Part shown: positions 1,947 to 53,341 of the stretch, in pieces
Numbering within the stretch: position 1 is the stretch's first letter
Layout of the letters: each line of letters opens with the position of its first letter
From: Candidatus Nanosyncoccaceae bacterium
Lineage (GTDB): Bacteria > Patescibacteriota > Saccharimonadia > Saccharimonadales > Saccharimonadaceae
Direction: 5' to 3'
DNA: 64,000 nt
NCBI GenBank assembly: GCA_051891815.1
Contig: JBJFFO010000010.1
Span: forward strand, 16,207-80,206
Notes under the pieces: generated by a model
What the model saw: only the letters and a program-made list of their open reading frames with translations
The model's database searches: none
Told to the model about the DNA's origin: nothing
Position numbers and translations under genes: made by a program

Positions 1947-2022
1947 GCCGCGATAGCTCAGTTGGTAGAGCGCATCCATGGTAAGGATGAGGTCCCGGGT
2001 TCAAATCCCGGTCGCGGCTCCA
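1947..2022 (+). tRNA. tRNA-Thr: tRNA-Thr (anticodon GGU), CCA encoded
   Basis: Hand-folded cloverleaf: acceptor gccgcga/tcgcggc, D arm gctc-agttggta-gagc, anticodon arm catcc-atGGTaa-ggatg, T arm ccggg-ttcaaat-cccgg, then discriminator t and cca. Confidence 0.93.
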
Positions 2023-2023
2023 T
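1976..2023 (+). repeat. attL-like direct repeat (3' half of tRNA-Thr)
   Basis: The 48-mer ccatggtaaggatgaggtcccgggttcaaatcccggtcgcggctccat is identical to 13151-13198 (compared base by base). Confidence 0.9.
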
Positions 2024-2039
2024 ATAATGTCTATTAAAA

Positions 2040-2070
2040 CTCGTGAACATAGAATGTTTGCGAGTTTTTT
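2040..2070 (+). terminator. rho-independent terminator after tRNA-Thr
   Basis: 10-bp stem ctcgtgaaca/tgtttgcgag (two G-U pairs), loop tagaa, then TTTTTT. Confidence 0.6.
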
Positions 2071-2194
2071 GTTTCTTGCTTTTTTCTTAGAAGTAATAGA
2101 TCGTAAGTGTTTGCTTCGGCTCATATCGTCGACTTTCTTCCATGAAAAACGAGCCATATGAGCCGGAACATTAGTAGAATCCCTATTTTTGAAA

Positions 2195-4378
2195 CTATAG
2201 TTTCATTGCAATTTGTTGTAGGGCCTTATTCTTTGTTCTCAGATAGTAGTTCTTTACTTTATCTGAATACTCAGCAGGGAGGTTAACGTCTCTTGCAAGT
2301 TCATCATAATATGATATGAAGTATGTTTGCTCTTGGTGTTCGATTTCAGCGCCTACTTGCGGATATTTATCTTTGAGAACTTCAGCAATATGTGTACAGT
2401 TGAATAGCTGGTAGAGATATTGTTTCAAATAAGATCCTTTAATTTCACCGATACTAGTTAATTTTCCTCTCGCTCTCGTGTCTGAATAATTCTCAAAATT
2501 AGTTTTCCTAAGCGGTCTGGTCTTTAATGCGTCTTGGTGAAGTACATTCCATAAATTAGAAACACAACGCTTCACTTGAGCTTCGTTGAGGTTATTATTT
2601 GGATTTTGTATATAAGATAGAATATTTTTTACATTAGAACTATCCATTAACGCATAGGTAGCAACCTCTACGCCAAAATCGTCCGTTATCGTATCGAGCG
2701 CATCCATATCAACACTAGCAATCCTCTTGTTGAAGAAAATATCTGGCTTAATGAGCCCTGATTTATCGAAGAATTCAGACAGTTGCGGATATTGCTTGAT
2801 GATGCTTGGATCTCCTTTTATACTCTTGCCGAGCTGTTCGATGTCGTATTGTATATACGGCATTTCTTGACCGTTTTCATCAACCTTGAGAGTAAAAGCG
2901 CGCCTCGTCCTCACTTCTTGTTCGTTTTCCATACACTTAACCCAATGGTCAGATGCACGTATTTTGCTGGCCACATCTTTTTTGTCCCAATAGTATTGCC
3001 TCTCGTGTTCGTTTATGAATTTTCGGCATTGTCTCCATGCTTCTTCATCAGCTTGAATTTCTATTTCGTCGCTATCATGATTCGCTCGGTAGTAATCAGT
3101 TTTAACTTCATTTCCATTCTTATCAAGCACTTTGTTTAAGTTTTTGTCAACCAATGGGAAACACTGATTTTTATTTTTTCTTAAAACCTGATTTAGTATA
3201 TGAACCATAGCGCTGCTATTGTCTTTGCCGTCTGCCACCATAAATTTTTGATAGTCGTGGGTGAGTTCATGAAAGGAGACCACCATTAAGGAATACAGGT
3301 CAGAAATAGTTTCACGTCTAGATTTACTAAGTCCTTCCTCTGACGATAACGACATACGGTTAATTTTATTCTGCTCCAATACACAATATTCTGCGCACGA
3401 GACTCCTGTGTTGACTGGAGTTAATTTTTGTTTCTCGTTATCATACCTAGAATTATTAGCTATAATAATGCGCCTGTCTTTCAATCTGTCATCCAGCGTG
3501 TCCTTATAGCCAAAATAATTTGCAAGAGCGCCACCTATTTGTGTAGAAGGTTTTAAATCTCGTCGTTCTCTTGCTTCGTTAAACATATAGCACGCAAACT
3601 TCTTTGCTAAGCCACTGCCGAAATCTCTCCCTGAATACAGATAATCGCCAACCATGTTCAGTTCGCCCTGAGATACTAATGCTCTATTTTCCAAGCGGCT
3701 CTCAATCGTCCTTAAGTAACTCTTATACATGGCCTCGCTCTCGCCGAGGTTTCTAACTATTCTATCTACTTGATCTGCCGGCTGAAGTTGCGAAATTACC
3801 AATCTTCGATACCTCGGATTCTTCAATACTGGGTTCGTAGATAATTCGGGATAATACTTTTTGCCATTGATTATTTGCACTTTTTGGCGTGCAGTGTCTA
3901 CGATGTACGAAGCATAATTTCTAAATTGTTCTGAGTTAACAAAATCTCTTGCACTATCTCCCGATAGCTGACCAATAATATAATGGTCTAGCATATCTTT
4001 ACTAGAAAGAACATCGGCCCTAGATTTAGAATTGGGTTGATATTGCTCAAGATAGTTTTCTTGCGCAGTTTTTAAGAGATTAGGATTAGAAAGTATTCTT
4101 TCATACTTCGGTAATCGTATTGAATATCCTTCTAATTTAGTAGGAGAAATTATATCACCATAGGAATCATAGTCGCCATCCGAACCACCCCATACATTTT
4201 CATCCTCAAAATCTGAGTTACCTATTTCGGGTTTATTCGCTGATATTTGCCTTGCTTCCTCTACTCGGCGAGCAGCAGCATCGGGATCAAATGGTGGGGC
4301 ATCTTCTAACGGATGTTTTTCTTGGCTCGCTTGTGGATTCTCGCTTATTGAGCCAACTTTTTCTGCGTCGCTAATCAT
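2195..4378 (-). CDS. large HExxH (zincin-like) protein of unknown function, paralogue of 28124-30169
   Basis: 727 aa. SFHELTHDYQ (aa 369-378), then ANHDSDEIEIQADEEAWRQ about 60 aa downstream. Acidic, disordered N-terminus; no signal peptide or TM segment seen. Its start overlaps the stop of the upstream ARH gene (ATGATTAG). Confidence 0.8.
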   Translation of the reverse strand: MISDAEKVGSISENPQASQEKHPLEDAPPFDPDAAARRVEEARQISANKPEIGNSDFEDENVWGGSDGDYDSYGDIISPTKLEGYSIRLPKYERILSNPNLLKTAQENYLEQYQPNSKSRADVLSSKDMLDHYIIGQLSGDSARDFVNSEQFRNYASYIVDTARQKVQIINGKKYYPELSTNPVLKNPRYRRLVISQLQPADQVDRIVRNLGESEAMYKSYLRTIESRLENRALVSQGELNMVGDYLYSGRDFGSGLAKKFACYMFNEARERRDLKPSTQIGGALANYFGYKDTLDDRLKDRRIIIANNSRYDNEKQKLTPVNTGVSCAEYCVLEQNKINRMSLSSEEGLSKSRRETISDLYSLMVVSFHELTHDYQKFMVADGKDNSSAMVHILNQVLRKNKNQCFPLVDKNLNKVLDKNGNEVKTDYYRANHDSDEIEIQADEEAWRQCRKFINEHERQYYWDKKDVASKIRASDHWVKCMENEQEVRTRRAFTLKVDENGQEMPYIQYDIEQLGKSIKGDPSIIKQYPQLSEFFDKSGLIKPDIFFNKRIASVDMDALDTITDDFGVEVATYALMDSSNVKNILSYIQNPNNNLNEAQVKRCVSNLWNVLHQDALKTRPLRKTNFENYSDTRARGKLTSIGEIKGSYLKQYLYQLFNCTHIAEVLKDKYPQVGAEIEHQEQTYFISYYDELARDVNLPAEYSDKVKNYYLRTKNKALQQIAMKL

Positions 4379-5513
4379 TGTTATCTACCTGTCCTTTAGC
4401 TGTCTTTTTCTTGTTAGTAATATTCTCAAAGAATTCATTATCCTCGAATCTGGTTCTAAGAATTGGACATTTTGGCATTTTAAGCAGATCATCGGCTATT
4501 TCGACTAACTCGTCAGATAGATAAACTTCTTTTCGCCATTCCTCAGGTATCGCATTGTAGCCATAATAAGCACCTGCGAGTTGGCCATAGATTGCGCCAT
4601 TAGTATCGGTGTCTCCACCTAATCTAATTACTGCCATAATACCATCTTTGAAATTATTGAAGTTCATCAAACCCCAGAGAGCAATAGCGAAGGCATCAAC
4701 GATGTATCCACCGAGATTGCATAGTTTCTCTCCGTCTTTTTCTAGAGTTCTATTTATTAGTTTTTCGCAGTTATTGAGATAGAAGTGGTCATATTCTTCG
4801 TTCATAATCCAACGTCCACAATACGAAGCAATATTGTTTTTAGAAAGCCCATGCAGGGCGCAGTAAAGCATTGTTGCAAATAGTGCCGTCGTTGCCTCGG
4901 CGGCAATAGAATTATGTGTTTCGCGACATGATAGAACTGCCATATCGATCGTAGGCGTGATATCTTTTAGATCGATAAATTCTCCGCCATCATTTTTGGG
5001 GTCAATTATAAGATTTCCTTTTTTAAAACCATCTTGGAGGGTTGGGTATTTTTTATTTAAGAAAGTATTAGCGATAATAATCGGTGCGAGACGCATGATC
5101 GCGCCATTACCGGCAGATTCTGTTTTGGGATAATCTTTTGGTACTACTGGGTGAGCGATAAATTCGTCAATAGCACGAGATGTTTGCATTCCCACATCAT
5201 GGGCCGGCTTATCGTCATATGTTCGATAGCCTTCTTCACTCCAGGCCCGGAATCTGCGCATGATGTCATACGAATCATATCCCTCGTTGACTAATAAACT
5301 ATCTGCCATACAGAGCGCCATTTCCGTATCGTCAGTCCAAACGCCTTCTGGCACACGGTAATTCTTATGGAAATGTTCAATTTTATCACCCATTTCTTTA
5401 ATATAAACATCTGACGGATCAGGTAAGAATTCTACGGGCGCACCAAGAGCATCGCCAACCGCGAGACCGACGAGCATGCCGCGAGCTCGATCTTGGTAAT
5501 CACTATTAACCAT
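4371..5513 (-). CDS. ADP-ribosylglycohydrolase (ARH/DraG family)
   Basis: 380 aa. RARGMLVGLAVGDALGAPVEF, WTDDTEMALCMADSL and a C-terminal GGDTDTNGAIYGQLAGAYYG are the ARH-family metal-binding motifs. Confidence 0.88.
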   Translation of the reverse strand: MVNSDYQDRARGMLVGLAVGDALGAPVEFLPDPSDVYIKEMGDKIEHFHKNYRVPEGVWTDDTEMALCMADSLLVNEGYDSYDIMRRFRAWSEEGYRTYDDKPAHDVGMQTSRAIDEFIAHPVVPKDYPKTESAGNGAIMRLAPIIIANTFLNKKYPTLQDGFKKGNLIIDPKNDGGEFIDLKDITPTIDMAVLSCRETHNSIAAEATTALFATMLYCALHGLSKNNIASYCGRWIMNEEYDHFYLNNCEKLINRTLEKDGEKLCNLGGYIVDAFAIALWGLMNFNNFKDGIMAVIRLGGDTDTNGAIYGQLAGAYYGYNAIPEEWRKEVYLSDELVEIADDLLKMPKCPILRTRFEDNEFFENITNKKKTAKGQVDNND

Positions 5514-5544
5514 GCTTCCATTATATCATCGGGCTAATTTTCTC

Positions 5545-5757
5545 TCAGGCTGTTCTTTTCCGCATATAGACAGAAATGTATGGCTGTCGGTTTTCGTGTG
5601 ATCCACCGCCGCCAGTATTTTGGTTTGTAGTTGTGGTTCCACCAGAGGTTGTAGTCTCAGTGTAATCCCATTGTGATGAGTTTACGGAGCATTGAGCACG
5701 ATAAGTAGGGCATAATCCGGCGGCGTATGTATTTGCGTGTATAGATGTAATCGGCAT
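5545..5757 (-). pseudogene. possible remnant of a phage-tail-collar / MdpB-like protein (C-terminal piece only)
   Basis: 70-aa ORF ending GGGGSHENRQPYISVYMRKRTA. This resembles the C-terminal GG..H.N.QPY motif of tail-collar domain proteins, but the ORF is far too short for a complete domain. Confidence 0.35.
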
Positions 5758-5845
5758 TATCCACGATAAAGATATCTGGTATTATGTTGGCGAAAAAGAT
5801 GCAAACGGAAAGCGTCTGCGCACGGATGAGCGTTATTCGTCGTTC

Positions 5846-6046
5846 TTGGTTGACGCGAAACGCTATGACGATATGGATGTTCTGCGATGGGAACTTGAGA
5901 GACTTCCGAAAACCCTAACTTATAAGATTTTGGAAATTCAACGTTGTCCGAAGTGCAAGAAAGAATTCACAGACTATCCGGCGCTTTCGCGAGGGGATAA
6001 CGAAACAGAAATCTGTCCGGAGTGTGGTGTTAGGGGAAGCGATTGA
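5846..6046 (+). CDS. small zinc-ribbon protein or gene fragment
   Basis: CPKCKKEF...CPECG gives two CxxC pairs. TTG start in the ORF track. The same frame stays open upstream to nt 5705 with no ATG, so it may be the 3' remnant of a longer gene. Confidence 0.3.
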   Translation: MVDAKRYDDMDVLRWELERLPKTLTYKILEIQRCPKCKKEFTDYPALSRGDNETEICPECGVRGSD

Positions 6047-6076
6047 AGCATATTGTAGAGCAAATAAATAAGCTAC

Positions 6077-8563
6077 TTACTGATTGCCTTGTATTTCTTG
6101 TTGTGCGCGTTGGATATATGTTTCTATGTCATCTAGAGAGAAATCTTTGCCAAACAAATTTGGATTTTGGGCGTACAACCTGCGTAATAGGTCGCTTGCC
6201 GTCTTGAAAGAATAATCGTTTCCGGCTAGCGATCTACTTTTATTGGTAGAAGCACCATAAGGGCCATCCATGAGCTGCATATTTACATCGAGGTTATAGC
6301 CACGCTGAATCATATCGTTGACTACTCCGCCACCGCCCACTGCGATCATATAGCCGTCTCTATCTTTTACATATTCAAGCTGAGTGTCTGGTAAATCCAT
6401 CCAGTTTTCAGCTTTCCTGCCATCATGTTCCAATATAGTCGCATGAGTAATTGTATTCGGTTCGACCCCACCACTTTCTTCGTGCGTTGCTTCCATTGTG
6501 AGCGTTCCGAGTAGCACTATCGAATTATCAGGATTCGACTCGTTGCGACGATGAACTGCCTCATGCATTGTCTTCTCAACGCCAAAATTAGTTCCGCCGG
6601 TTACTATAAAAGCAGTCTCCGGATTTAATGTATCAGCGAGCACTTGCATAGTTAACGCTATTTTTTGCTGATCTTTCGGAGTAATATTTGGCCAGTTGCT
6701 TTTGGAGGCTCCCGTAATCATTACCGGAGTTTTTCCAGCTGTTGCTTTTTCGACCGCTTCAGCATCAGTAACTATTCCCACTCTTTCGAGCCTCTCGTCC
6801 AATTGTCTTGCTGCTTCGGCTTTTGCTGCAGCGTATCGATCCGACACGGCTTTATTGTATCTTGGTTGGCCATCCTCAGTAGAATACTTTACGCTATCAT
6901 ACATGAAATCAACGCTTTCTGGTCGTGGATGACTACTCTCTCGGCGAGATTCTCTTTCTAGTATTTTTGCCTCAGTTTGTCGCATTTTTTCGAAATCTTC
7001 TGGCTCTAATCCTGCCGCAGTTGCAAGAAGGGCTTCTTGTTCGCCGATTGTTGAATAAAGTCCGCCGCCATCTGTGCCTAAGACTACATCGACACCGGCA
7101 TCAAGATATTTCTTTATGGGGATTTCAGAAATACTATTGATATTATTCAAGGCCAAATTAGAGCTAATATTAAACTCCACTATTGCACCCATTTCTTTGG
7201 CTAGTTGGATCGTTTCCTCATCTACGCCATATAATCCATGTCCAATTCTTACTCTGGGCATTTCGTATTCACGACCGTCGGCTGCTTCGCGTGCTTCATG
7301 TTGCTCGTAGATAATACGCAGGGTATCTTTTACATTATTCTTAAACATCGGGTTTTCCCCGGCATGAACTCGAATTGTAAAGTCTGGGTCTTCGCCCATT
7401 GCGTAATTGGCAAGCATTTGGAGCTCGTCCTTGAATGTTTTCGTAGAGTTAGTTTCATGACCCATAAAATCAACGCCGACGATGTATGGGCTTCTGGCGA
7501 TGCTAGTAATTCTATCAGTATCGTCCATATTCCATTCTTTGTCGGAGTGTCGCCATAAGCCCGCCACGAAGCGAAGCTTTACTCCGGTTTGAGCTTCGAT
7601 TTCTGGAACATGTTCATTTATCATTTCCATATACTCACGATCACCGATAAACGATGAGTACGATAGTTCCGCGTATTCTACGCCCGTATCACGATACGTC
7701 TCTGCCAGGGAATGGAGTAGATCGGGGAACAATTCTTTATTTTTTGTGAATGGGCCACGCAAAGCGTATATTTCTTCCATCTTATTGAAAGTTTCTTGTG
7801 TGACCGGAGAAATCATAAGGCCGCTTTTTAGTGTGTCTAAATCCTCATCGCTTATGGATTTCAGTTCTATATTGCCTTTATCATCGACTTCGTATTGACT
7901 AGTATCAACTCCGACTTGGGCTAGAAAATGTGCGGGGTATGAAATGTCGTGTTTCTTACCTACATCGATTAGTGAATCCGGAGTAATTGCTCCGGCAAAA
8001 TGTGTATGCAAATCAGTTTTTGGTTTAAAATCGGTCAGCTTTTCCCTAGAGAAAGGTACGCCATTTTCTTTTCCTTGAGCAAGCGATCTTAACTCAAAAG
8101 CTGTCAATTTATTCACGCTTTGAATTTCGCCAGTAGAACGACTTACGTCGATAAAGATAGTATCGCGAATAGAATATCGCCAAATATCTTCGTTCTCGGT
8201 AGGAGCTATTGACGATATGCCTCTCAGATTCTCGACGATTTTACGGCTTAAATGTTCGTCTTTACTGGAACATTCTAGATCGAAATCCACTCCGTCATCA
8301 GACTCTTCGAAAACGACTTTCAATAAGTTCCCGTAGTCTAGAAACGATTCGGAAAGGCGTTCTCTGTCTTTTTCGTATTTACTTTCGTCTATATCTGAAC
8401 GTCTCTCGGAGTCGGTACTAGGTTTAAATGGCACTTCTGCTGCCAGATCGTCCCAAGTGGTTTGTTTACTATCTTTCCCACCCTCAATAACTTCCCAACC
8501 GGTTTCCTGAGGCTTCAAGGCGTTGTTACCTGATATGGCACCACCGAGATTAAAGTTTTTCAT
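6077..8563 (-). CDS. adenosine-deaminase-fold domain fused to a C-terminal SLOG/LOG-like Rossmannoid domain
   Basis: 828 aa. Deaminase ligand set in canonical order: DLHTHF (aa 184-189), GVDFMGHE, RVHAGE (398-403), RIGHG (439-443), NISSN, LGTDGGG (495-501). C-terminal VMITGAS, FIVTGGTNFGVEKTMHEA and MIAVGGGGVVNDMIQ match the LOG/SLOG glycine-rich pattern. The first ~180 aa are unassigned. Confidence 0.8.
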   Translation of the reverse strand: MKNFNLGGAISGNNALKPQETGWEVIEGGKDSKQTTWDDLAAEVPFKPSTDSERRSDIDESKYEKDRERLSESFLDYGNLLKVVFEESDDGVDFDLECSSKDEHLSRKIVENLRGISSIAPTENEDIWRYSIRDTIFIDVSRSTGEIQSVNKLTAFELRSLAQGKENGVPFSREKLTDFKPKTDLHTHFAGAITPDSLIDVGKKHDISYPAHFLAQVGVDTSQYEVDDKGNIELKSISDEDLDTLKSGLMISPVTQETFNKMEEIYALRGPFTKNKELFPDLLHSLAETYRDTGVEYAELSYSSFIGDREYMEMINEHVPEIEAQTGVKLRFVAGLWRHSDKEWNMDDTDRITSIARSPYIVGVDFMGHETNSTKTFKDELQMLANYAMGEDPDFTIRVHAGENPMFKNNVKDTLRIIYEQHEAREAADGREYEMPRVRIGHGLYGVDEETIQLAKEMGAIVEFNISSNLALNNINSISEIPIKKYLDAGVDVVLGTDGGGLYSTIGEQEALLATAAGLEPEDFEKMRQTEAKILERESRRESSHPRPESVDFMYDSVKYSTEDGQPRYNKAVSDRYAAAKAEAARQLDERLERVGIVTDAEAVEKATAGKTPVMITGASKSNWPNITPKDQQKIALTMQVLADTLNPETAFIVTGGTNFGVEKTMHEAVHRRNESNPDNSIVLLGTLTMEATHEESGGVEPNTITHATILEHDGRKAENWMDLPDTQLEYVKDRDGYMIAVGGGGVVNDMIQRGYNLDVNMQLMDGPYGASTNKSRSLAGNDYSFKTASDLLRRLYAQNPNLFGKDFSLDDIETYIQRAQQEIQGNQ

Positions 8564-8585
8564 GCCACTATGATACCTTTCCTAG

Positions 8586-9269
8586 CTATTCCGCTGATCC
8601 GCCCTTAAAGTCTCCTGCTTGCTCGGCGATATTATCCCAAGTCGTTGGTTCTTCGGTCTTTGGCGTTTCGCCAGTCGCCGCTTCGCCGGAACGAGTGTAA
8701 GTATCATGAAAATCTCTTGGGTTAATTGCATACATATCATCTGGGTTCGTAATATTAATAAAACTACCCTTTGGCATATTCATCTCATCTCCCCATTGCG
8801 AAATTGTCAAAGCTTCTTTCGTTTCAACGAACTTCTGTGGGCCACCGACAGGTCTGAAAATGTCCGGATGGTCTGGATCCACTTCATACTTCTTGCGGAA
8901 GGTTTTGTCGTCAATAATCCATTGATTCGTATGGCCATTCTTATCAACTATTGGATTACCGTCGGCATCAGTTTTGGTTGCGATCCAACCAGTTTCGCCG
9001 GTTTCTTCGTCGGCTGTCACGGTGGCTACCTTTTCCTGAATTGGATTTCCGTTCTCATCCTCGCTCCAAGAAATAACTTCTTGTCCAGCCTCGCCTTTTA
9101 CGGCACCAATGCGAGCGTGTTTTGCCGCTTCGAACACTTCCAAACTACCGTCGGCTAGGCCGGCCTCAACGTATTCTTTTGTATCGACTTTGCGATACTC
9201 CATATTTTCCCAACCAGTATTTCCGGCGGTTTCACTATTACCACTAGGAGCTGTTTCCTTTGAACTCAT
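8586..9269 (-). CDS. hypothetical beta-rich protein, first gene of the ADA::SLOG operon
   Basis: 227 aa. GGAGG RBS 7 nt upstream. 22-nt gap to the downstream 828-aa gene. Paralogous to the 202-aa ORF at 9710-10318 (GWIATKT.../EWIATNP..., FRKKYE/FHKRYE, NPDD). Confidence 0.8.
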   Translation of the reverse strand: MSSKETAPSGNSETAGNTGWENMEYRKVDTKEYVEAGLADGSLEVFEAAKHARIGAVKGEAGQEVISWSEDENGNPIQEKVATVTADEETGETGWIATKTDADGNPIVDKNGHTNQWIIDDKTFRKKYEVDPDHPDIFRPVGGPQKFVETKEALTISQWGDEMNMPKGSFINITNPDDMYAINPRDFHDTYTRSGEAATGETPKTEEPTTWDNIAEQAGDFKGGSAE

Positions 9270-9308
9270 AAGTATTCCTCCAACTATTAAAATTACTATT
9301 TACATTAT

Positions 9309-9326
9309 GCCACAAAATTATGTGGC
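9309..9326. promoter_or_regulatory. candidate operator (inverted repeat GCCACA-N6-TGTGGC) in the divergent XRE / operon control region
   Basis: gccacaaaattatgtggc, with perfect 6-bp arms. On the minus strand it overlaps a TGgCATAAT extended -10-like element upstream of 8586-9269. Confidence 0.4.
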
Positions 9327-9381
9327 TGTGAGCCTATATATGAAAACTTCTTTTCAACGGATAATAGAAGTAAGGAATATT

Positions 9382-9630
9382 ATGATGGAGGATAGGGCCT
9401 ATGTCCATGACGATGAGTATTGCTACGAGGTGATTCGTAGGAATATGCGTAGGTTTCGAAATCAACGCGACCTCACTCAGCAACAATTGGCCGACCTGAC
9501 CGATATGTCTAGGGAATATATTTGCGATATTGAGAATACTAGCCGAAATAAACACGTTTCAATCGCGGTTCTCGGCCGAATAGCTGAAGTCTTAGACAAA
9601 CCGATCGGCGATTTCTTTATTGAAGATTGA
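9382..9630 (+). CDS. XRE-family helix-turn-helix transcriptional regulator
   Basis: 82 aa from the ATG at 9382 (AAGGAA RBS at 9372-9377). LTQQQLADLTDMSREYICDIENTSRN is a typical Cro/C1 HTH. The longer ORF from 9109 runs antisense through the neighbouring gene, so I did not use it. Confidence 0.85.
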   Translation: MMEDRAYVHDDEYCYEVIRRNMRRFRNQRDLTQQQLADLTDMSREYICDIENTSRNKHVSIAVLGRIAEVLDKPIGDFFIED

Positions 9631-9709
9631 TTAATTTTTCTTGGAAGGAAAAAGGCAGCTCCGAAAAGCTGCCTAGTAGGTTTTCCTGAGACTACCGCTC
9701 AGATCTTGA

Positions 9710-10318
9710 TTACTCGTTCCAACCTTTTCCCAGAACTTCATCTGCAGGCCCGTAAGCCGCAAAGTCGTTCTCGCTCAGAATGTAGCGATCGCCCTCGGCG
9801 AGGTCATCAGGATTGTCCTTATTGTAGGGAGCGCAGAAGTAGCACTTCGCATCTCCGTTCTGCGGACCACCCCAAGGTGCCTCGATCTCGACTGCGTCGC
9901 CGGTATCATTCTGGATGATTCTTGCCATACCCTTGGCGCGATACACGCCGGGTTCGTCCGTAGGCTCGTAGCGCTTGTGGAATGTCGCATCCGGAATGAC
10001 GTAGTTGTTGTCGCGGTCGCTTTCCCAAGCCTTGGGATTGGTAGCGATCCACTCGCCAACTTCGACAGGACGCGTGTCCTCGAGCTCAGCGCTGCGAATG
10101 CAGCCTTTGCCCTCAACGGGAATCTCGCGCATCACATAGGTGTCGATCACATACTGGCCTTTCTTGTCGTCGAAGCGAATGTCCTTGTCGGCATATTCGC
10201 CAGCCTTGAGTCCGTCCTCGGTGATCTGCATAGCCTTGATGACGCCTTTCTTGGCGTAGATGGCCGCTGCTGCGAACTTGTTGGTGTACTCCTCGGTGTT
10301 CAGATTGATCTTCTTCAT
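9710..10318 (-). CDS. hypothetical beta-rich protein, GC-rich paralogue of 8586-9269
   Basis: 202 aa. Shares EWIATNP, FHKRYEP and NPDD...F blocks with the 227-aa protein. 34/60 G+C counted at 9901-9960, inside an otherwise AT-rich island. Confidence 0.75.
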   Translation of the reverse strand: MKKINLNTEEYTNKFAAAAIYAKKGVIKAMQITEDGLKAGEYADKDIRFDDKKGQYVIDTYVMREIPVEGKGCIRSAELEDTRPVEVGEWIATNPKAWESDRDNNYVIPDATFHKRYEPTDEPGVYRAKGMARIIQNDTGDAVEIEAPWGGPQNGDAKCYFCAPYNKDNPDDLAEGDRYILSENDFAAYGPADEVLGKGWNE

Positions 10319-10437
10319 AGTAGTGTCCCCTTTCTATGGATACAAAATTTTTGAAAAATGCCATAGCACTACTTACGAGTAATTCAGATTTGTAAGGTGC
10401 TATTGTAAGATTAAGTATTTTTCAATCTTACCCTTAC

Positions 10438-10466
10438 ATTATAGCACACTTTAGCGAAATTGTCAA
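10438..10466 (-). promoter_or_regulatory. sigma70-type promoter (TTGACA-17-TATAAT) for 9710-10318
   Basis: The minus strand reads ttgacaatttcgctaaagtgtgctataat. This gives a leader of about 110 nt. Confidence 0.6.
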
Positions 10467-10790
10467 TATACTACAACATATTTTCACATAAATTGAAAAT
10501 GCTTAAGCTAAGAAATACCCCTCGTCGTGGACGAGGGGTTGGGGACTGCTCCCATGAAGAGCATGTGGAAGTGATCTTTAGGATTTACACGGTATTCTTT
10601 GTGTCTTCTAGAATGGGATCTTAACTTCCCAACACATATAATATCGTTACCGTATCGGACAATTTTAGATAATGAGCCTTTCAAGGTCGGCTGTTATCCT
10701 TGTTGTCTGTTACTTCCTTAAAGTACTTAGAGATTGGTAGTCGACTTGTATCGTAATAACATTTTCTCCATATTAGAAGCTACTCGCCAG

Positions 10791-10812
10791 AAAACTCCCG
10801 CCTTGTCGGGAG
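10791..10812 (-). terminator. rho-independent terminator after the helicase remnant
   Basis: Minus strand: stem ctcccg/cgggag, 6-nt loop, then TTTTCT. It lies 13 nt past the stop at 10825. Confidence 0.5.
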
Positions 10813-10824
10813 AGCACTTTTCTG

Positions 10825-11703
10825 TTAAGAAACTTTGGCCTCCGACCTAGGACGTACAGTTCGGACGTGTGCTAGACGCCTACCACTATCAAACGAGAAT
10901 TTATCTTTGCCGTCGGTTCGCCTCCAAACCCAGTCTGTGATATTTACGTAGTGGTCATTGTCGGTGTAGTGCGAAGATAATGCAAAGGATACTTCCATCT
11001 CCTTACCGTCCTCGTCTTTTACTGTCTTCATGCTGTCTTCGTAATTGCAGACGTATTCGTTGCTTTCTTTTGCTATCGCCTCTATATGCTCAGCAAAGTC
11101 TCTCCATTTCGCATAGGTGTCAGAGTATCTATCGCACATTTTCTGGACGCTAGCGTCGGTCTTTTTGTAGTCGGAGTAAAGCTTAAATATGCTCGACGGA
11201 GCGTTCACTTGTTCTTGGCGCTTTAAGAAATCTGATGCTCTGAATGATGATTTCTGGGATAACTCTTTGAGTCTTGTCGTCTTGATCTTGATTTCATTTG
11301 TAATAATGTCGCTATCTTGCCATAGCTTTACGCCGAAGCTCTTGCGCAAATCTTCAGGAATTATACCCCATATCCATGCGGTCATCGCAAGTTCCTTGGC
11401 CTCGTCGCTCAGAGTTTCAAAATCTAGTAGTCTTGGGTTGCGCCGGACGCGGCCCATGACCTGCTCATCTAATTGTTTGCTCTTACTATCACGCATCTGG
11501 TACAACATACAAGCGCGTGGAATATCCCATCCCTCGGTGATGACCATTTTGAAGATTATGATATCTATCGTAGATAGGTTTTCTTTAGCATAGTCTTTCC
11601 ATTTCGAAACTGGAAGCTTCTTGGCCATGCGAGCATTCAAGTTACGATGACTTATACCCACGTCGTAGATGAAGATCTTCACCAAATTCATCGCTTGAAG
11701 CAT
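10825..11703 (-). pseudogene. truncated SF2 helicase / type III restriction Res-like protein (C-terminal RecA lobe only)
   Basis: 292 aa. VITEGWDIPRACMLYQM and QVMGRVRRNP correspond to helicase motifs V and VI. No Walker A or DExH part is present upstream, because the Fic gene starts 128 nt away. Confidence 0.6.
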
Positions 11704-11722
11704 ACGGTGATTCGCGCCTCTT

Positions 11723-11794
11723 AACTTTAAATAATGAGAAATCGCTACTTTAAATAATTACTCCTGTTATAGCGACATCTCAACTTTAAATAAT
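11723..11794 (+). repeat. three direct copies of ACTTTAAATAAT upstream of the Fic gene
   Basis: Copies at 11724-11735, 11747-11758 and 11783-11794. The first and third extend to aactttaaataat. Confidence 0.7.
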
Positions 11795-11830
11795 CTACCT
11801 ATTATGGTAAAATAATACTAGGAGAATATT

Positions 11831-12961
11831 ATGATTAATACACCTACCCCTAAATTTGATTCTGGCCTCACGAATATCATTCTTGAGCTAGAACACCTTA
11901 AGAATCGTCCGCTCAAAAATACCACGAGCGAGAGTGTCTTTTTGCAGCTCAAAAGCTTACTCCATGCAGTGGAAGCGGTCGCTTCTGCGCGCATCGAGGG
12001 GAATCATACAACTATCGCTTCCTACATCGAGAAGCGTGATGACGACAGCCATAAGAACGATGAGCAGATCATCGAAATCTCCAACTTGATCGACGGCTTG
12101 GATTTTATTGATAGATACGTCATGGAAGAGCTTATCTCGGCTGATTTCATCAAAGAGCTTCATCGTGTTGTCGTAGGTGGTCTAACCCATGAGGGCGACA
12201 AGCGTGCAGGTGCGTGGCGCGATGAGCCTCGTTATATCGCCAATGCCAAGCATCAACCACCTGAACCATATGATGTTCCGGATCTCATGCGTGAGCTTAT
12301 CGACTATATCAATAGCGACGAGGGCGAGCAGTATGACTTGCTCAAAATCGCTATCGCCAATCATCGCTTCGTTTGGATCCACCCATTCGGTAATGGAAAT
12401 GGCCGTACCGACAGATTGATGACTTATGCGCTTCTTTGCAAGAAAGGCTATATTGCTCCGAATAAAATGCGCCTCTTTAATCCAACAGCTATTTTTGCAG
12501 GTGATCGTAATAAGTATTACGATATGCTAGCTCTTGCCGATGACTATAAAGACGAGCATATCCTAGAATGGTGCGAGTATTTCTTGTCTGGTGTTCGCGA
12601 CGAGATTAAGAAATCCGAATCTCTTGCCGATGCTGAATTCGTCAATAAGAAGATCCTGCTTCCGTCTGTCGGTCGTATGGAGAAAGCCGGTGTTGTTTCC
12701 AAACTAGAGGGCAATATTCTTGGCCGTGCTGTTCGTCTTGGTGTTATCAAGGCTAGCGACATCAAAGATCTTTGGGGGCGCGAAGTTACTTCCGTTGCTA
12801 TCGCTCAGCAGATCAAGAAACTTCGTGATCGTAACCTTATTAAACCCACTAAAGAGGGTGGCCGTGAATACGAGATCAGCTTTGAAAATAGTGAGCTAAC
12901 TCGCGTTACTCTCGAGCAAATGGATCTTGCCGGTCTTCTGCCGATCCGAGTGGACCGCTAA
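11831..12961 (+). CDS. Fic/DOC-family protein (putative AMPylase) with C-terminal wHTH-like region
   Basis: 376 aa. HPFGNGNGRTDRL matches HxFx(D/E)GNGRxxR, with Asn at the D/E position. The N-terminal ARIEGNHTT block is typical of Fic_N-type proteins. Confidence 0.88.
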   Translation: MINTPTPKFDSGLTNIILELEHLKNRPLKNTTSESVFLQLKSLLHAVEAVASARIEGNHTTIASYIEKRDDDSHKNDEQIIEISNLIDGLDFIDRYVMEELISADFIKELHRVVVGGLTHEGDKRAGAWRDEPRYIANAKHQPPEPYDVPDLMRELIDYINSDEGEQYDLLKIAIANHRFVWIHPFGNGNGRTDRLMTYALLCKKGYIAPNKMRLFNPTAIFAGDRNKYYDMLALADDYKDEHILEWCEYFLSGVRDEIKKSESLADAEFVNKKILLPSVGRMEKAGVVSKLEGNILGRAVRLGVIKASDIKDLWGREVTSVAIAQQIKKLRDRNLIKPTKEGGREYEISFENSELTRVTLEQMDLAGLLPIRVDR

Positions 12962-12966
12962 AAATA

Positions 12967-13006
12967 GTGCGAATTTTGGTGAACTTAGCCGAATTCGCAC
13001 TTTTTT
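12967..13006 (+). terminator. rho-independent terminator after Fic
   Basis: 9-bp stem gtgcgaatt/aattcgcac followed by TTTTTT. Confidence 0.6.
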
Positions 13007-13150
13007 ATTCAATTTATGTTATACTAGATTGTAGGAAGCTGCGACTCGTTTGAGCTCGTGACCTGTCACTTAATAACTAAGAAATCAATTGCGGTTCTTA
13101 GGGTTAAGTGTCTATACCCTTATTATTTATTGTCGAGGAGTCGACGATAA

Positions 13151-13198
13151 CCATGGTAAGGATGAGGTCCCGGGTTCAAATCCCGGTCGCGGCTCCAT
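13151..13198 (+). repeat. attR-like direct repeat (orphan 3' half of tRNA-Thr)
   Basis: Identical to 1976-2023. No tRNA 5' half precedes it (upstream sequence is ...ggagtcgacgataa). Confidence 0.9.
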
Positions 13199-13247
13199 TT
13201 TTTTATATCTTAAACCCCGCCAATATGGGGAGTTCTTTATTGCATCA

Positions 13248-17282: not shown

Positions 17283-17966
17283 TTAGAAAATTAGCATTAG
17301 TAACCCATATAGCGCTAATCCCAGCGAAACCGAGTCAAAGCGATCAAGATAACCACCGTGGCCACGCATTGGTGCTTCGACTAACTTGAATATGCGTAAA
17401 TTCGCGAGCAATACACCCGAATCCTTCACGCCAAGTTGACGTTTGGTGGCCGAGCCCAGTAGGTCGCCAATCGCGGCCGTTAGTCCGCCCAGCGCAATAT
17501 ACGCGACGATGCGAGGCGTAATCGGGATTCCAGTCAAGACGCAGACAAGATATGCGGCGACGATTCCGATCAAGATCCCGCCTGCAAAACCTTCGTAGCT
17601 CTTGCTAGCCGAAATCTTGGCGAGGAACTTAACCTTATGGCGTCCAATCAGCGAGCCAACAGCGAATGCGCTGACGTCGGCCAGCATGCTCGTGCAGAGC
17701 ACTAGCGCGATTTCCTCGCGGCTCATGAATAGCGTGGTAAAGCCCGCAATCATGAGAATTACAGATTGGTAACAGAATGCGAAGTGCGGATGACAATGCT
17801 TCGGGTCTAGTGTCAAGGTTAACAAATCTAAGGCGTAATCTATCTCCATAAAGGCGATAAGCAAGCAAAAAATCAGCAAGAACTTGAGTGCAGTCCCGTC
17901 AAAGGCAAAGTATCCCAGTAAAAATATTCCAATGATAAAAAGTGCGGTAATTACTCGTTTTCTCAT
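17283..17966 (-). CDS. cdsA: phosphatidate cytidylyltransferase
   Basis: 227 aa, multi-TM. SATKRQLGVKDSG...GHGGYLDRFDS is the CTP-transferase-1 signature. Confidence 0.88.
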   Translation of the reverse strand: MRKRVITALFIIGIFLLGYFAFDGTALKFLLIFCLLIAFMEIDYALDLLTLTLDPKHCHPHFAFCYQSVILMIAGFTTLFMSREEIALVLCTSMLADVSAFAVGSLIGRHKVKFLAKISASKSYEGFAGGILIGIVAAYLVCVLTGIPITPRIVAYIALGGLTAAIGDLLGSATKRQLGVKDSGVLLANLRIFKLVEAPMRGHGGYLDRFDSVSLGLALYGLLMLIF

Positions 17967-18071
17967 AATACCACCTCCGGTTTATATTTTGAGCAATTAC
18001 AATACCGCTATTATAACATAAAATCATAAGATGTAAAAAAGACGCCCCAGTCGGGGCGCCAGTTGGGCTCT

Positions 18072-18863
18072 TCAGCGCAAAATGCTGACGAGCAGGGCAA
18101 AAAGTATGATGCTAGTTGAGATCGAATCACTCATGTCGAGATATCCATCGCGAGACTTGGTAAACCACTCGAGAACCCCAAAGACCGGCAATCGTCCAAA
18201 AAAGCAATTAGAATTCTTAATTCCAAGCTGTCTTTTGGCGCCTGATGCGAGCAAATCGCCACAAGCACCAAAGACCGGCGCTAGCAAAATGAATCCTGCC
18301 GTTGCCATGTCGCGACATAGTCCGAACATGTAGACTATGGTTGTTCCGGCCACGAAGCCGAAGATTAGCTCGCCTAAATATCCAGCGTAGGTCTTGTTTG
18401 GCGACAAGTTCCTCAGCATGCGAACCGGCGTGCCGATGCTAAATTTGCGCGTCAGCTTGCCGACAAACAATCCGCCAGCATCGATTGAAACAGTCGTGCC
18501 TACGACTAATATCAGCTCGCGTCCAGAGACACTCAGCAGGAATACTAGCACAATTGCGACTTGCAATACGATGAGCTCGGTCCAGATTGCCCAAACCCCT
18601 CGGTGTGGCCAATTCGGAATCGGCTTAGTTTCGGCCTCGGGACGTTTGATGTGGTAAATACCGCTACGCTGAAATATGCGTTCAATAATCGTAGTTGCGA
18701 TTTCTAGGATCGAAATGCTCAGAATGAGGCAAATCAGCCACCTTAAAAGCGCTCCATTTTGGAACAACCCTGTGGCGATTACGACTCCGCCTAGCACCAG
18801 TGTGTCGACGATGCGATCGATGTTACTGACTCTCTGCGAAGCCATAAACATCACCCCTTTCAT
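18072..18863 (-). CDS. divergent CdsA-family (CTP_transf_1-like) membrane protein
   Basis: 263 aa. ASGAKRQLGIKNS...SRDGYLDMSDS parallels the CdsA signature, but HGG becomes RDG and DRxDS becomes DMSDS. The true start may be the third Met (18845). Confidence 0.7.
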   Translation of the reverse strand: MKGVMFMASQRVSNIDRIVDTLVLGGVVIATGLFQNGALLRWLICLILSISILEIATTIIERIFQRSGIYHIKRPEAETKPIPNWPHRGVWAIWTELIVLQVAIVLVFLLSVSGRELILVVGTTVSIDAGGLFVGKLTRKFSIGTPVRMLRNLSPNKTYAGYLGELIFGFVAGTTIVYMFGLCRDMATAGFILLAPVFGACGDLLASGAKRQLGIKNSNCFFGRLPVFGVLEWFTKSRDGYLDMSDSISTSIILFALLVSILR

Positions 18864-22787: not shown

Positions 22788-23177
22788 ATGAAGAAGATTG
22801 AAGTAGTTGCAGCAGTAATTAGAAAAAATGACAAAATCTTATCAACTGAGCGTGGTTATGGTGAGCTCGAAGGTTTCTGGGAATTTCCAGGCGGAAAAAT
22901 TGAACCAGGCGAGAATAAAGAGCAGGCCCTAAAGCGCGAAATCATGGAAGAGATGAATGTTGAAATCGAGGTTGAGGATTATATTACGACAGTGGAATAT
23001 GATTATCCAACATTTCATCTTATTATGCATAGTTTTATTTGTGAGCTTGATGGAGATTTTGAATTACTTGAACATCATGCGGCAAAATGGCTTACTCGTA
23101 ATGAGTTGGATGACGTGAAGTGGTGTCCGGCTGACGTTGAGATTGTTGAGAAGATTAAAGAAAAGCCACTTATCTAA
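22788..23177 (+). CDS. NUDIX hydrolase (MutT-like)
   Basis: 129 aa. Nudix box GGKIEPGENKEQALKREIMEEMNV. Confidence 0.88.
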   Translation: MKKIEVVAAVIRKNDKILSTERGYGELEGFWEFPGGKIEPGENKEQALKREIMEEMNVEIEVEDYITTVEYDYPTFHLIMHSFICELDGDFELLEHHAAKWLTRNELDDVKWCPADVEIVEKIKEKPLI

Positions 23178-41300: not shown

Positions 41301-43007
41301 ATGGATCTCAATTTAATTCTCTCTATTGCGTTACCCGTGGTTGGTGTCATTGTTCTCGTCGTGCTGTTGTTTGCTATGATCAAAACAGCCAACGCGAATG
41401 AGGCCCTTGTTGTCTCCGGTGTCGGAGCCACCAAAAACGGCAACCCTATCATTAAGCGAGCCGGCGGACGCATCGTCATTCCTTTTATTCAAAAGGCCAA
41501 GTACTTTGATTTATGTACCAGGTCAACCAAGGTTACAGGCGATGTCACCAAGACACAATCCGGCGTGCCGATCATGATTGATTGGGCTATCGCGTATCAT
41601 CCTGACTATGAGGACGAACAGGCACTGCAACGTGCAGTAGCCAACTTCCTCGATAAGGACGAGCGTCAGCTCGAAGCGGTATTAATTGATATCGTTTCCG
41701 GCGGCGTGCGTGCTGTTATCTCTGGACTGACTCCTGAAGCTGTCATGAACAAGAAGGACGAACTTGATGATCAAGTCAAGGCCTCTATTCAGGTTCAGAT
41801 GAAAGAGCTGGGATTCTGTGTCGTTCTCTCGATTCATGAGGTCGTCGACGCTGAGGGTTCTACCTACTACAGCGATTTGGCAGCCAACGATCGTGAGACC
41901 AAGCGTCGCGAAGCAGCCAATATCACGGCGACGAACAATCGTCAGATTCGTGAAACCGCTGCCGTCGAGGATCGCCAGGCGCAGGATGCCGAGTTGAGCG
42001 CTCAGGAGGCTGTTGCGGCCCGTCAGCGCGACAAAGATATCAAGATTGCTCAGTTCAAGGCCGAAACTGAGATTGAGCAAAAGCGCGCCGAGCGTGCTTC
42101 TGATCTGGAAAACCAGACCATCGAGCAACAGCTGGCTGAGCGTGCCGGTGCCGTCGAGGTTGAGAAACAGAAACAGGCCAAGCTCGCCGCTAGCGCTGAG
42201 CAGGAAGTGCTTGTGACTAAAGCCGAGACCAAGAAACGTACCGACGTAATCTCTGCCGAAGCTGCCGCCCAAAAGGGCGTCATCGAGGCTCAGGGCCGTG
42301 CCGATGCTGAGGCTGCCGAGACTACTCGTAAGGCCGAGGCCGAAGCAACTGCGCGCAAGACTACCGCTCAGGGTACAGCCGAAGCGCTTCGCACTGAAGC
42401 AAGCGCCGAAGCTGACGCAACCCGTCAGAAAGGACAGGCCGAAGCTGACGCAACCGAGGCCAAAGGTAAAGCCGAGGCCGAAGCGATTCGTGCCAAAGGT
42501 TTGGCTGAGGCCGAAGCTGCGCGTGCACTCGCCGATGCAAACGCCGCCAACGACAAGGTCAACTTCGAGCTTGAATCCCTCAAGATCGAGACCTCTGCCA
42601 GAGTTGAAGTTGCGACCAATGTCGCCAAGGTCATGGCTGAGGTGGGCAAGAATGCAACCTTCTATGATTTTGGTGGCTCGTCTGGCTCAGATGGCGCCGC
42701 TGGCTCCAACCTGTTCACCCGCGTAATCGGCGATTTGCCGATGCTCTTTGCCAAGGCCAACGCCGAAGGCAAGGCGCTTAACGGCGAAGAAGTACAGGAA
42801 ACTGTCGGCAAGTTGGCAGAATCCTTGCTTGCACCTCTTGCGGGTGCGCTTGGCAAAAAGCCGGCCGTAACGGACGGCAAACCTGCCAGCGATATGCCTG
42901 TCGAGTCTGAAGTTGTAAAACCCGACATCAAGACTACCGAGGTCTCCGACGACGGCTTCGTCGCACCGAGTGGCGAGACTATCCCGCCCGAAGCGCTCGA
43001 CGATTAA
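41301..43007 (+). CDS. SPFH/flotillin-family membrane protein with long Ala/Glu-rich coiled coil
   Basis: 568 aa. N-terminal TM helix, SPFH core (ANEALVVSGVG...GVPIMIDWAIAY...), then AEAEA-type repeats. Confidence 0.85.
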   Translation: MDLNLILSIALPVVGVIVLVVLLFAMIKTANANEALVVSGVGATKNGNPIIKRAGGRIVIPFIQKAKYFDLCTRSTKVTGDVTKTQSGVPIMIDWAIAYHPDYEDEQALQRAVANFLDKDERQLEAVLIDIVSGGVRAVISGLTPEAVMNKKDELDDQVKASIQVQMKELGFCVVLSIHEVVDAEGSTYYSDLAANDRETKRREAANITATNNRQIRETAAVEDRQAQDAELSAQEAVAARQRDKDIKIAQFKAETEIEQKRAERASDLENQTIEQQLAERAGAVEVEKQKQAKLAASAEQEVLVTKAETKKRTDVISAEAAAQKGVIEAQGRADAEAAETTRKAEAEATARKTTAQGTAEALRTEASAEADATRQKGQAEADATEAKGKAEAEAIRAKGLAEAEAARALADANAANDKVNFELESLKIETSARVEVATNVAKVMAEVGKNATFYDFGGSSGSDGAAGSNLFTRVIGDLPMLFAKANAEGKALNGEEVQETVGKLAESLLAPLAGALGKKPAVTDGKPASDMPVESEVVKPDIKTTEVSDDGFVAPSGETIPPEALDD

Positions 43008-52505: not shown

Positions 52506-53341
52506 TGAGTATCAAAGCTTATCGCCCAACCACGCCGGCACAACGTCAGAAAACCACTCAAGACTTTGATCAGATTACTACTCGTAAGCCTCTCAAAAGC
52601 TTGATCCAAAGCAAAAAGCAAAATGCTGGCCGCAACAACCAGGGTCGCATTACGGTTCGCCATCGTGGTGGTGGCGTCAAACGTCACTATCGTATCTTGA
52701 CTCACAATCTTCCTGCAGGTCTTACCCTTCGCGTTGAAGAAATCGAGTATGATCCAAACCGTAGCGCACGCATCGCACGTGTCAAAGATCAAAACGGTGT
52801 ATATTACTACATCCTCGCTGACACCAACATGCGCCAGGGTCTCGAAATCCAGACTGGTGAAGAAGCTCCAATCGAAACTTCCAACCGCATGGCTATCGAA
52901 CAAATCCCTGTTGGTACCCAAATCTACGCCATCGAGCTTACTCCAGGCAAAGGCGCTCAAGCCGTCCGCGCAGCTGGTGCATCTGCTCAGCTTATGGCAA
53001 AAGAAAACGGCTACGCAACTATCCGCATGCCATCCGGCGAAGTTCGTAAAGTTCTTACGACCTGTACCGCAGCTATCGGTGTAGTTGGTAACGTCCAGCA
53101 CCAAAACGTCAAGATCGGTTCTGCTGGTCGTAAACGCCGCAAGGGTATTCGCCCAACTGTACGTGGTGTCGTTATGAACGCATGTGATCACCCACACGGT
53201 GGTGGTGACGGCGGTCGTCACGGTTCTGGCAAAGCTCCACGCACTCCATGGGGTCAACTCACTTTGGGTTATCGCACCCGTCACAATAAGAAAACTAACA
53301 AGATGATTATCCGCAGTCGTCACCAAGGAAAGAGGAAATAG
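52505..53341 (+). CDS. rplB: 50S ribosomal protein L2
   Basis: GRNNQGRITVRHRGGG and NACDHPHGGGDGG. Confidence 0.98.
   Translation: MSIKAYRPTTPAQRQKTTQDFDQITTRKPLKSLIQSKKQNAGRNNQGRITVRHRGGGVKRHYRILTHNLPAGLTLRVEEIEYDPNRSARIARVKDQNGVYYYILADTNMRQGLEIQTGEEAPIETSNRMAIEQIPVGTQIYAIELTPGKGAQAVRAAGASAQLMAKENGYATIRMPSGEVRKVLTTCTAAIGVVGNVQHQNVKIGSAGRKRRKGIRPTVRGVVMNACDHPHGGGDGGRHGSGKAPRTPWGQLTLGYRTRHNKKTNKMIIRSRHQGKRK

Follow-up and report, generated by a model that had tools for sequence, protein, structure and literature searches.

We analyzed a 64,000-nucleotide stretch of DNA, hereafter the window, from a Candidatus Nanosyncoccaceae bacterium (positions 16,207 to 80,206 of contig JBJFFO010000010.1, assembly GCA_051891815.1), in which a 48-bp repeat of the 3′ half of a threonine tRNA gene brackets an island of about 11 kb (1976-13198). 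It is very probable that this island is the decayed, immobilized remnant of a temperate-phage-derived tyrosine-integrase element, inserted in the 3′ half of tRNA-Thr(GGT) of a member of Saccharibacteria. On integration, 48 bp of the tRNA were duplicated. At the left attachment site (attL), the tRNA received from the element a new 3′ flank with a terminator of its own, and at the right attachment site (attR) the displaced partial tRNA copy was left ahead of the native T-run. The island has a standard architecture that specialists would not find surprising; its cargo is of greatest interest, in particular an adenosine-deaminase protein encoded next to a PGDYG-like partner.

Integration in tRNA-Thr(GGT) and occupancy of the site in relatives

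The intact tRNA-Thr(GGT) gene (1947-2022, + strand; detected with ARAGORN, 71 bits in Rfam) is identical in sequence to that of related species L008 and L006 (L numbers denote the sequences compared with the window). Its 3′ part forms attL. The attL core (1976-2023, +) begins at the 5′ strand of the anticodon stem and ends 1 nucleotide past CCA, and the attR core (13151-13198, +) is a 48-bp partial tRNA copy. Base-by-base comparison agreed with an earlier, sequence-only reading of this DNA, according to which the two 48-mers are identical and in the same orientation. The bases adjoining them differ on both sides (T/A before, A/T after), and no tRNA 5′ half is present in the 29 nucleotides ahead of the second copy, as that reading had also noted. 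With up to 3 mismatches allowed, the 48-mer occurred twice in the window and not once in shuffled sequence.

Both cores are accompanied by element-derived arms. The arm beside attL (2024-2098, +) contains the replacement tRNA terminator, a hairpin at 2036-2068 found in a scan for terminator-like structures. The same scan detected a hairpin at 13215-13230 (+), probably the original tRNA terminator displaced by the insertion; this hairpin and its T-run resemble the layout of unoccupied sites in 15 species. The arm beside attR (13010-13150, +) was aligned with the stretch between integrase and partial tRNA in two sister elements (L039 and L033) and with a contig of attP type (L029). Eleven nucleotides of this arm, GTCGACGATAA at 13140-13150, stand where other partial copies have '..GATAA'. 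Downstream of the terminator of the Fic gene described below, the window and L039 have in common a promoter-like motif and the 11 nucleotides adjoining the core. The motif, TTTATGTTATAMTNGATNGTAGG, lies at 13013-13037 in the window and at ~6930-6955 in L039, ~115-140 nucleotides upstream of the partial tRNA copy; it is oriented outward, to the host flank, and sits beyond the terminator of the final element gene.

Few relatives were found for the gene upstream of the tRNA (1125-1844). A related species at 52% identity was represented by three assemblies. Phage tail genes begin directly after tRNA-Thr in two of them (L007 and L009); in the third (L008), tail genes are absent after the tRNA and the sequence runs on into homologs of the right flank of the window. 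The 3′ end of the L008 tRNA and the next 8 nucleotides are 100% identical to 13151-13206 of the window (56 nucleotides), and the distal repeat copy therefore still fronts native downstream sequence. At the other end, 75 nucleotides (2024-2098) are 91% identical to the sequence behind the tRNA at the end of the prophage in another species (L007). As the flanking core protein is only 52% identical, this segment belongs to the mobile element. The same arm was also found in L006, L027, L024, L036, L037 and L029. The tRNA-Thr genes at the occupied sites (L007, 10836-10912; L009, 10848-10923) differ from the L008 tRNA over most of their length, with compensatory acceptor-stem changes among the differences in L007; these phages seem to bring their own nearly full-length copy of tRNA-Thr.

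Scanning one genome per species for a 47-mer of the repeat yielded a census of 42 contigs, nearly all from Candidatus Saccharibacteria, with some from Nanosyncoccus or Nanosyncoccaceae, and mostly from animal gut or rumen. The full tRNA was followed by a T-run in 15 of the 42, by the window's own arm in 6 and by something else in 13; a partial copy was present in 6, and the contig ended in the remaining 2. The sequence '..GATAA' visibly precedes 5 of the 6 partial copies, and the contig with the sixth (L034) holds only the last two bases of the arm. The 48-mer is thus not a randomly dispersed tRNA fragment, which the sequence-only reading had named as a finding that would undo its proposal. 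Partial copies followed by a T-run (L033, L039) are of attR type. The partial copy in L029, a 2970-bp contig, is followed by an attL-type arm, so that both arms are joined as in attP. A second pattern that would have spoken against integration, relatives carrying the same 11 kb without repeats, was not observed either: L006 shares only the left 3.5 kb (2184-5639), its homology to the window resumes at 13239, and attR is deleted together with about 40 nucleotides of flank. The arms, the sister integrases, the attP-type junction and the unoccupied relatives support the interpretation of the repeats as an attL/attR footprint in tRNA-Thr, and show tRNA-Thr(GGT) to be a recurrent integration site of one temperate-element family across gut and rumen Saccharibacteria.

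Two sites had a more complex structure. L039 contains a second tRNA-Thr relic (7067-7180) after the integrase-proximal partial copy, in which an internal deletion joins GCCGCGATAGCTCAGTTG to CGGGTGCAATCCCGGTCGCGGCTCCA and which is followed by a homolog of the 727-residue protein discussed below; such a structure would fit tandem accretion, or more than one use of the site. In L052 (11150-11460), tRNA identity stops just after the anticodon loop (..GATAACCATGGTAA), beyond which the sequence looks like the C-terminal coding region of another gene. The break may be a crossover point or may reflect a chimeric contig.

A repeat unrelated to integration, whether an assembly artifact or a tRNA fragment duplicated segmentally or by chance, is extremely improbable. 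Absence of an intact integrase is the one observation in favor of such an origin; against it stand the lack of matches in shuffled sequence and the arms, integrase remnant and family census, all of which lead to site-specific recombination. Assembly data are equally clear on this point. Proteins of the window have identical counterparts in Logan assemblies of four sequencing runs. On the left flank, the contigs of these assemblies stop 30 nucleotides into the repeat, and on the right flank they begin 30 nucleotides before its end, a graph effect of k = 31 at a repeat, such that these contigs cannot tell an occupied from an empty site. The independent assembly is thus interrupted precisely at the two copies, and the island comes out as a single contig of 11187 bp that has 30 nucleotides of repeat on either side and differs from the window at 2 positions. 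Since the same arrangement was obtained independently, structure of the island is reproducible.

Phage remnants and decay of the element

A tail-fiber gene is preserved as a relic of its C-terminal end (5545-5757, −), which is matched by the C-terminus of PHROG tail-fiber and tail families. The last 23 residues of the relic align with the last 23 of a 726-residue tail-fiber protein in L007 that carries DUF859 and Gp10_C domains, and both sequences end in RTA followed by a stop codon. Next to the relic, at the left edge of a cargo slot, is a 5′-truncated zinc-ribbon gene (5745-6046, +; weak zinc-ribbon match in Pfam) with no start codon before 5846. It is 87.5% identical at the amino-acid level and about 85% at the nucleotide level to a 117-residue gene of L052 (1982-2335), and was also found in L039 and L027. 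The junction between relic and zinc-ribbon gene marks the loss of structural genes. With this structural relic, and with tail-gene prophages (L007, L009) at the same tRNA and with the same attL arm, the island qualifies as a defective prophage.

Sister elements in L039 and L033 encode an integrase of tyrosine type (301-314 residues; Pfam Phage_integrase, E about 1e-31) that ends ~200 nucleotides ahead of the partial tRNA copy, and L052, a viral contig from IMG/VR, encodes a 90%-identical enzyme. A hidden Markov model (HMM) built from these integrases matched a single 48-codon frame (11578-11721, E = 1e-16), with residues 13-47 aligned to profile positions 267-301 of 301; no further match to this model was detected in the window. 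The remnant (11614-11721, +; stop codon at 11722-11724) consists of the C-terminal 35 residues (KLLGHASIQVTMTYTHVVDEDLHQIHRLKHTVIRA, then S) and corresponds to the end of the catalytic domain, including the conserved LLGH and tyrosine region. Its nucleotide identity to the family is 78-80%, and it points toward attR, as do the integrases of sister elements. Pfam searches with open reading frames (ORFs) and six-frame translations of intergenic regions revealed no intact integrase in the island. The earlier statement that the island has no recognizable integrase therefore holds for intact genes and fails for this C-terminus. The regions in which integrase remnants had been suspected (5514-6076 and 10319-10824) gave no such match in six-frame Pfam searches; the remnant lies elsewhere.

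The remnant adjoins a truncated helicase gene of the Res (type III restriction) kind, of which a 3′ stump is left (10825-11703, −; PADLOC REase_III, E = 4e-14; phrog_16 helicase). Residues 35-129 of the stump match REase_III profile positions 335-424 of 809, and the first ~30 codons of its ORF are antisense to the integrase remnant.

Two deletions would account for the present state of the element. The first would have fused the 3′ end of the tail-fiber gene to the truncated zinc-ribbon gene, with loss of the structural, replication and lysis modules. The second would have removed DNA across two divergent genes, leaving the 3′ stump of the helicase gene and the final 35 integrase codons in back-to-back orientation; a single event is suggested because both genes lost their 5′ parts at one junction. 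With the integrase reduced to these codons, the element would no longer be able to excise by itself. The earlier claim that the island is now immobilized is supported by independent evidence.

It could nevertheless be argued that the element is non-autonomous and still mobile, similar to satellites or to cis-mobilizable elements (CIMEs), with integrase and excisionase provided in trans by a superinfecting or co-resident phage of the same family. This scenario concerns present behavior and is compatible with an origin as a decayed prophage. The two 48-bp cores remain identical, the attL arm is still close to the prophage arm of another species at 91% identity, the 11 nucleotides beside attR and the upstream motif are conserved with integrase-bearing elements, and the family appears active elsewhere, as judged by the attP-type junction and the IMG/VR contig. 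However, neither an attP nor an empty-site junction of the island was found in JGI metagenome scans, the left module is fixed in three genomes of the species, one of which lost attR, the window contains no further integrase of the family, and the attR arm is conserved in short patches only. We consider continued mobility unlikely and favor an immobilized remnant.

Several observations weigh against a decayed prophage as the origin of the island. The tail-gene prophages (L007, L009) and the integrase-bearing elements (L039, L033, L052) are equated on the basis of shared arms and the relic and not of a full-length alignment, and no complete prophage of the family was retrieved on one contig. No empty site was found in the window's own species, all three genomes of which carry at least the left module; empty sites, for which the sequence-only reading had proposed to look, were seen in other species (the 15 with tRNA followed by a T-run, and the L008 match) and not within this one. 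Two JGI metagenome scans gave no match to the empty-site or attP junctions of the island. Exact-pattern scans of IMG/VR likewise gave no match to the attL arm or the attP core. An origin of the helicase stump from a type I HsdR of the kind found in L052 was rejected, as the two show no homology. Finally, a homolog of the 727-residue protein at 83% identity occurs outside any island, and the 727-residue gene may be a captured host gene instead of phage cargo.

Cargo slots and a candidate defense system

Accessory genes of the island appear to occupy two slots. The slot beside attL holds genes for the 727-residue HExxH protein and an ADP-ribosylglycohydrolase, and the slot between zinc-ribbon gene and integrase holds the deaminase-SLOG gene, its PGDYG partner, an XRE regulator and a second PGDYG paralog. 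The Fic gene is separate from both, between the integrase stop codon and attR. Content of the second slot differs from copy to copy. L052 contains a type I restriction-modification system (HsdR model, E = 6e-282, with specificity and methylase genes), L039 a type II system composed of an IceA-family endonuclease and a D12 methylase, and L027, the species representative for the window's species, an 843-residue protein with GmrSD_N, GmrSD_C and DUF5655 domains. In the window, the slot contains the deaminase operon, the XRE regulator, the second PGDYG paralog and the helicase stump.

The window and L027 are 94% identical over 2184-6052 and divergent beyond. As the relic/zinc-ribbon junction is common to both at this identity, it predates the cargo differences. 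The remnant is old enough for three genomes to share it, yet they differ in cargo. We infer from these sequence comparisons that cargo is probably exchanged by homologous recombination through the conserved anchors, and that the remnant may now serve its host as a defense-gene hotspot, a behavior deduced from four copies. A gutted copy of an element could in this way persist as a slot for the exchange of defense genes. The anchors themselves (zinc-ribbon gene, integrase and att arms) offer a way to harvest candidate defense genes from uncultured bacteria of the candidate phyla radiation (CPR).

Base composition varies along the island. Its G+C content is 42.7%, against 47.0% elsewhere in the window. 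A clear dip is seen only in 2024-5757 (39.8%), and just 2 of 189 same-size windows elsewhere have values this low; outside this segment the island has 44.2% G+C, inside the range of same-size windows elsewhere. The AT-richness previously attributed to the island is therefore modest, clear in its left part and within the normal range in the remainder, even though the underlying counts were exact (23/60 at 2221-2280 and 32/60 at 53101-53160). At third codon positions, G+C ranges from 0.35 to 0.70 among island genes (0.35-0.42 in four genes, 0.70 in the gene at 9710-10318) versus 0.49-0.56 in flanking core genes, a mosaic that fits cargo of several origins.

The difference of 39.8% versus 44.2% G+C between the two parts would also fit two tandem elements, i.e., an older remnant with the 727-residue protein, the glycohydrolase and the tail-fiber relic, joined by a later defense element from zinc-ribbon to Fic, with the internal att site lost. 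An accretion of this kind exists in L039 (integrase element, partial tRNA copy, internally deleted tRNA relic and 727-residue homolog), and L006 shares the left part only. On the other hand, a search for the tRNA core inside the island, with 4 mismatches allowed over 25 nucleotides, turned up no additional copy or fragment, the relic/zinc-ribbon junction shared with L027 is older than the cargo differences, and one prophage with two deletions takes fewer events. A tandem origin thus seems improbable to us, and derivation of the island from a single prophage is preferred.

The central cargo gene encodes an 828-residue adenosine-deaminase protein (6077-8563, −; Pfam A_deaminase, E = 4e-24) with a Rossmann-like C-terminal domain that is probably SLOG. 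A PADLOC match to CARF_ADA covers the deaminase part only (profile positions 230-556). The AlphaFold model of the deaminase (predicted local distance difference test, pLDDT, of 85) matches ADAL, ADA and Cad1 in fold, and the 25 homologs compared all keep the metal-binding and catalytic residues (HxH, HAGE, H and D). In the model, the C-terminal 230 residues alternate between strands and helices, with glycine-rich GGT..G.E and GGGG motifs. Its Pfam matches, to LSDAT_prok (E = 0.0026) and to LSDAT_euk (E = 0.013), did not reach the cut-offs. A match to TRPM2 was limited to the N-terminal part of that protein (E = 0.12-0.67), and one homolog had a faint match to Nuc_deoxyri_tr2; a fold search with the full-length model gave only deaminase matches among the top results. 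The architecture was detected in 281 clusters at 50% identity (E <= 1e-30), all of them unnamed. Relatives at 44-66% identity occur in Clostridia, Azospirillum, Ignavibacteriales and Saccharibacteria, and in three proteins (P0199, P0260 and P0303) the deaminase relatives are embedded in giants of 4275-6896 residues.

The deaminase operon also encodes a PGDYG-like partner of 227 residues (8586-9269, −). It is 34% identical to the protein beside the Azospirillum deaminase homolog, which passes the Pfam PGDYG threshold, and a family HMM found partners in L055, L056 and L057. A PGDYG gene adjoins the deaminase gene in three of four independent contexts (the window, Azospirillum and Ignavibacteriales, and not the Clostridia genome). 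In the Azospirillum sequences (L055 and L056, 8522-14236), genes of Band_7 and DUF5655 type and serine recombinases come after the pair; the GmrSD-type slot protein of L027 likewise has DUF5655 at its C-terminus. Divergent from the operon is a gene for an 82-residue XRE-type helix-turn-helix regulator (9382-9630, +; Pfam HTH_3), whose gene call was taken from the identical Logan contig. A second PGDYG-like paralog of 202 residues (9710-10318, −; family HMM, E = 2e-71; phrog_419) is 29% identical to the 227-residue partner (E = 2e-7) and is the G+C-rich paralog of the small operon protein recognized in the sequence-only reading. Most of that reading's gene list was likewise upheld, including the glycohydrolase (4371-5513), the deaminase (6077-8563), the XRE regulator (9382-9630), the helicase stump (10825-11703) and the Fic protein (11831-12961).

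Because the same slot holds restriction systems in three sister elements, the deaminase/PGDYG pair is a candidate defense module. PADLOC 2.0 had no match to the pair beyond the partial CARF_ADA match to the deaminase part, and full-text literature searches found no paper describing such a pairing. We tentatively suggest, with slightly less than even confidence, that deaminase-SLOG and PGDYG proteins, accompanied in the window by a divergent XRE regulator, constitute an anti-phage system of two genes that has not been described before. In such a system, the SLOG domain or the PGDYG protein would sense infection, and the deaminase would then destroy adenine nucleotides. The pair is the first such defense candidate obtained from the anchors described above.

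A conserved HExxH motif (H370/E371/H374) is present in the 727-residue protein (2195-4378, −), for which neither Pfam nor PADLOC gave a match. Its family, specific to Saccharibacteria, comprises 51 clusters, in which HExxH is invariant and the few with a source name are all from Saccharibacteria. The AlphaFold model (pLDDT of 87) had no fold match in PDB or among viral proteins. The HExxH giant listed earlier as conflict cargo is present; its conflict role is putative, as the family also occurs outside islands. Homologs were located within about 300 nucleotides of a tRNA gene in five of five contexts (tRNA-Thr in three, tRNA-Ala/Ile in one and tRNA-Phe in one): window 2195-4378, L058 9552-12184, L061 7785-10067, L022 7365-8000 and L039 7067-8000. 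One homolog, 83% identical, sits in an apparently core neighborhood.

The adjacent gene encodes an ADP-ribosylglycohydrolase (ARH) related to Tri1 and DraG (4371-5513, −; Pfam PF03747, E = 3e-62), with matches to the NCBIfam Tri1 and DRAG models that are below cut-offs. A role of the 727-residue protein as an ADP-ribosyltransferase toxin paired with this glycohydrolase was considered and found no support, as the protein showed only an 18-bit Tpt1 match and no fold match, and close homologs occur in other contexts with no glycohydrolase neighbor. The Fic-domain protein lies between the integrase stop codon and the attR arm (11831-12961, +; Pfam Fic, E = 9e-19). It matched PADLOC SoFic over most of the profile (E = 1.5e-47) and scored 42 bits against the NCBIfam SoFic equivalog, whose cut-off is 550. 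Its active-site motif HPFGNGNGRTDR has N at a position usually taken by D or E in the canonical motif.

Several features were noted outside the island. A 958-residue protein with PLD-nuclease, helicase and DUF3427 domains (23170-26046, −), encoded next to a NUDIX gene, lies in a second stretch of low G+C (38.5-40.6%; 0.37 at third positions) and looks like another acquired defense-type gene. Two paralogs of CDP-diglyceride synthase (CTP_transf_1) are located between rplK and rplA (17283-18863, −), an arrangement kept in L008. A local G+C peak of 58.5%, versus about 47% for the window, was observed at 42001-43000.

Relation to known elements and defense systems

Saccharibacteria have tiny genomes with few recognized defense systems, and most of what is known about their mobile elements comes from automated prediction of prophages. 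In one study, 120 prophages were predicted in genomes of Saccharibacteria (PMC10746230). The island resembles cryptic prophages and tRNA-integrated islands in that a direct repeat of the tRNA 3′ end is present at both ends, the tRNA is regenerated with a 3′ flank supplied by the element, the integrase gene (in sister elements) is adjacent to att, and structural genes have decayed while accessory genes are kept. Elements of this kind, integrated by tyrosine integrases, are familiar. The island differs from them in its host, a CPR bacterium of the Saccharibacteria with a very small genome, in an integrase reduced to 35 codons and in the survival of one structural relic.

Two further comparisons concern its cargo and its mobility. 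CIMEs of streptococci are att-flanked remnants without recombination genes that derive from integrative conjugative elements. The island likewise has intact att sites and no working integrase and, by analogy, might in principle be mobilized by a related element; however, it is derived from a phage and not from an integrative conjugative element. Rousset et al. reportedly described, in 2022, defense hotspots on P2-like phages and P4-like satellites of E. coli. The island shares with these hotspots a fixed slot between conserved element genes that carries different defense systems in different copies, but belongs to another phage family and host phylum, and its carrier is no longer a functional phage.

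Among defense systems, the deaminase protein is most readily compared to RdrB of RADAR and to Cad1, which are likewise large adenosine-deaminase proteins; it has intact catalytic residues and lies in a defense slot of a mobile element, and the adenine-nucleotide destruction proposed above is modeled on these two proteins. In contrast to RADAR, there is no neighboring RdrA ATPase and no match to PADLOC Rdr models, and in contrast to Cad1, there is no CARF domain, no CRISPR neighborhood and no cas gene in the island. The sensor-like domain of the island protein is C-terminal and SLOG-like, and its partner is a PGDYG protein. Thoeris ThsA, a SIR2-SLOG protein, shares the logic of a probable ligand-binding SLOG domain fused to a nucleotide-destroying enzyme; here, however, a TIR partner (ThsB) is absent, a deaminase takes the place of SIR2, and SLOG matches are below threshold. 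Membership of the deaminase in RADAR, Cad1 or Thoeris was ruled out, as the defining partners or domains of these systems are missing.

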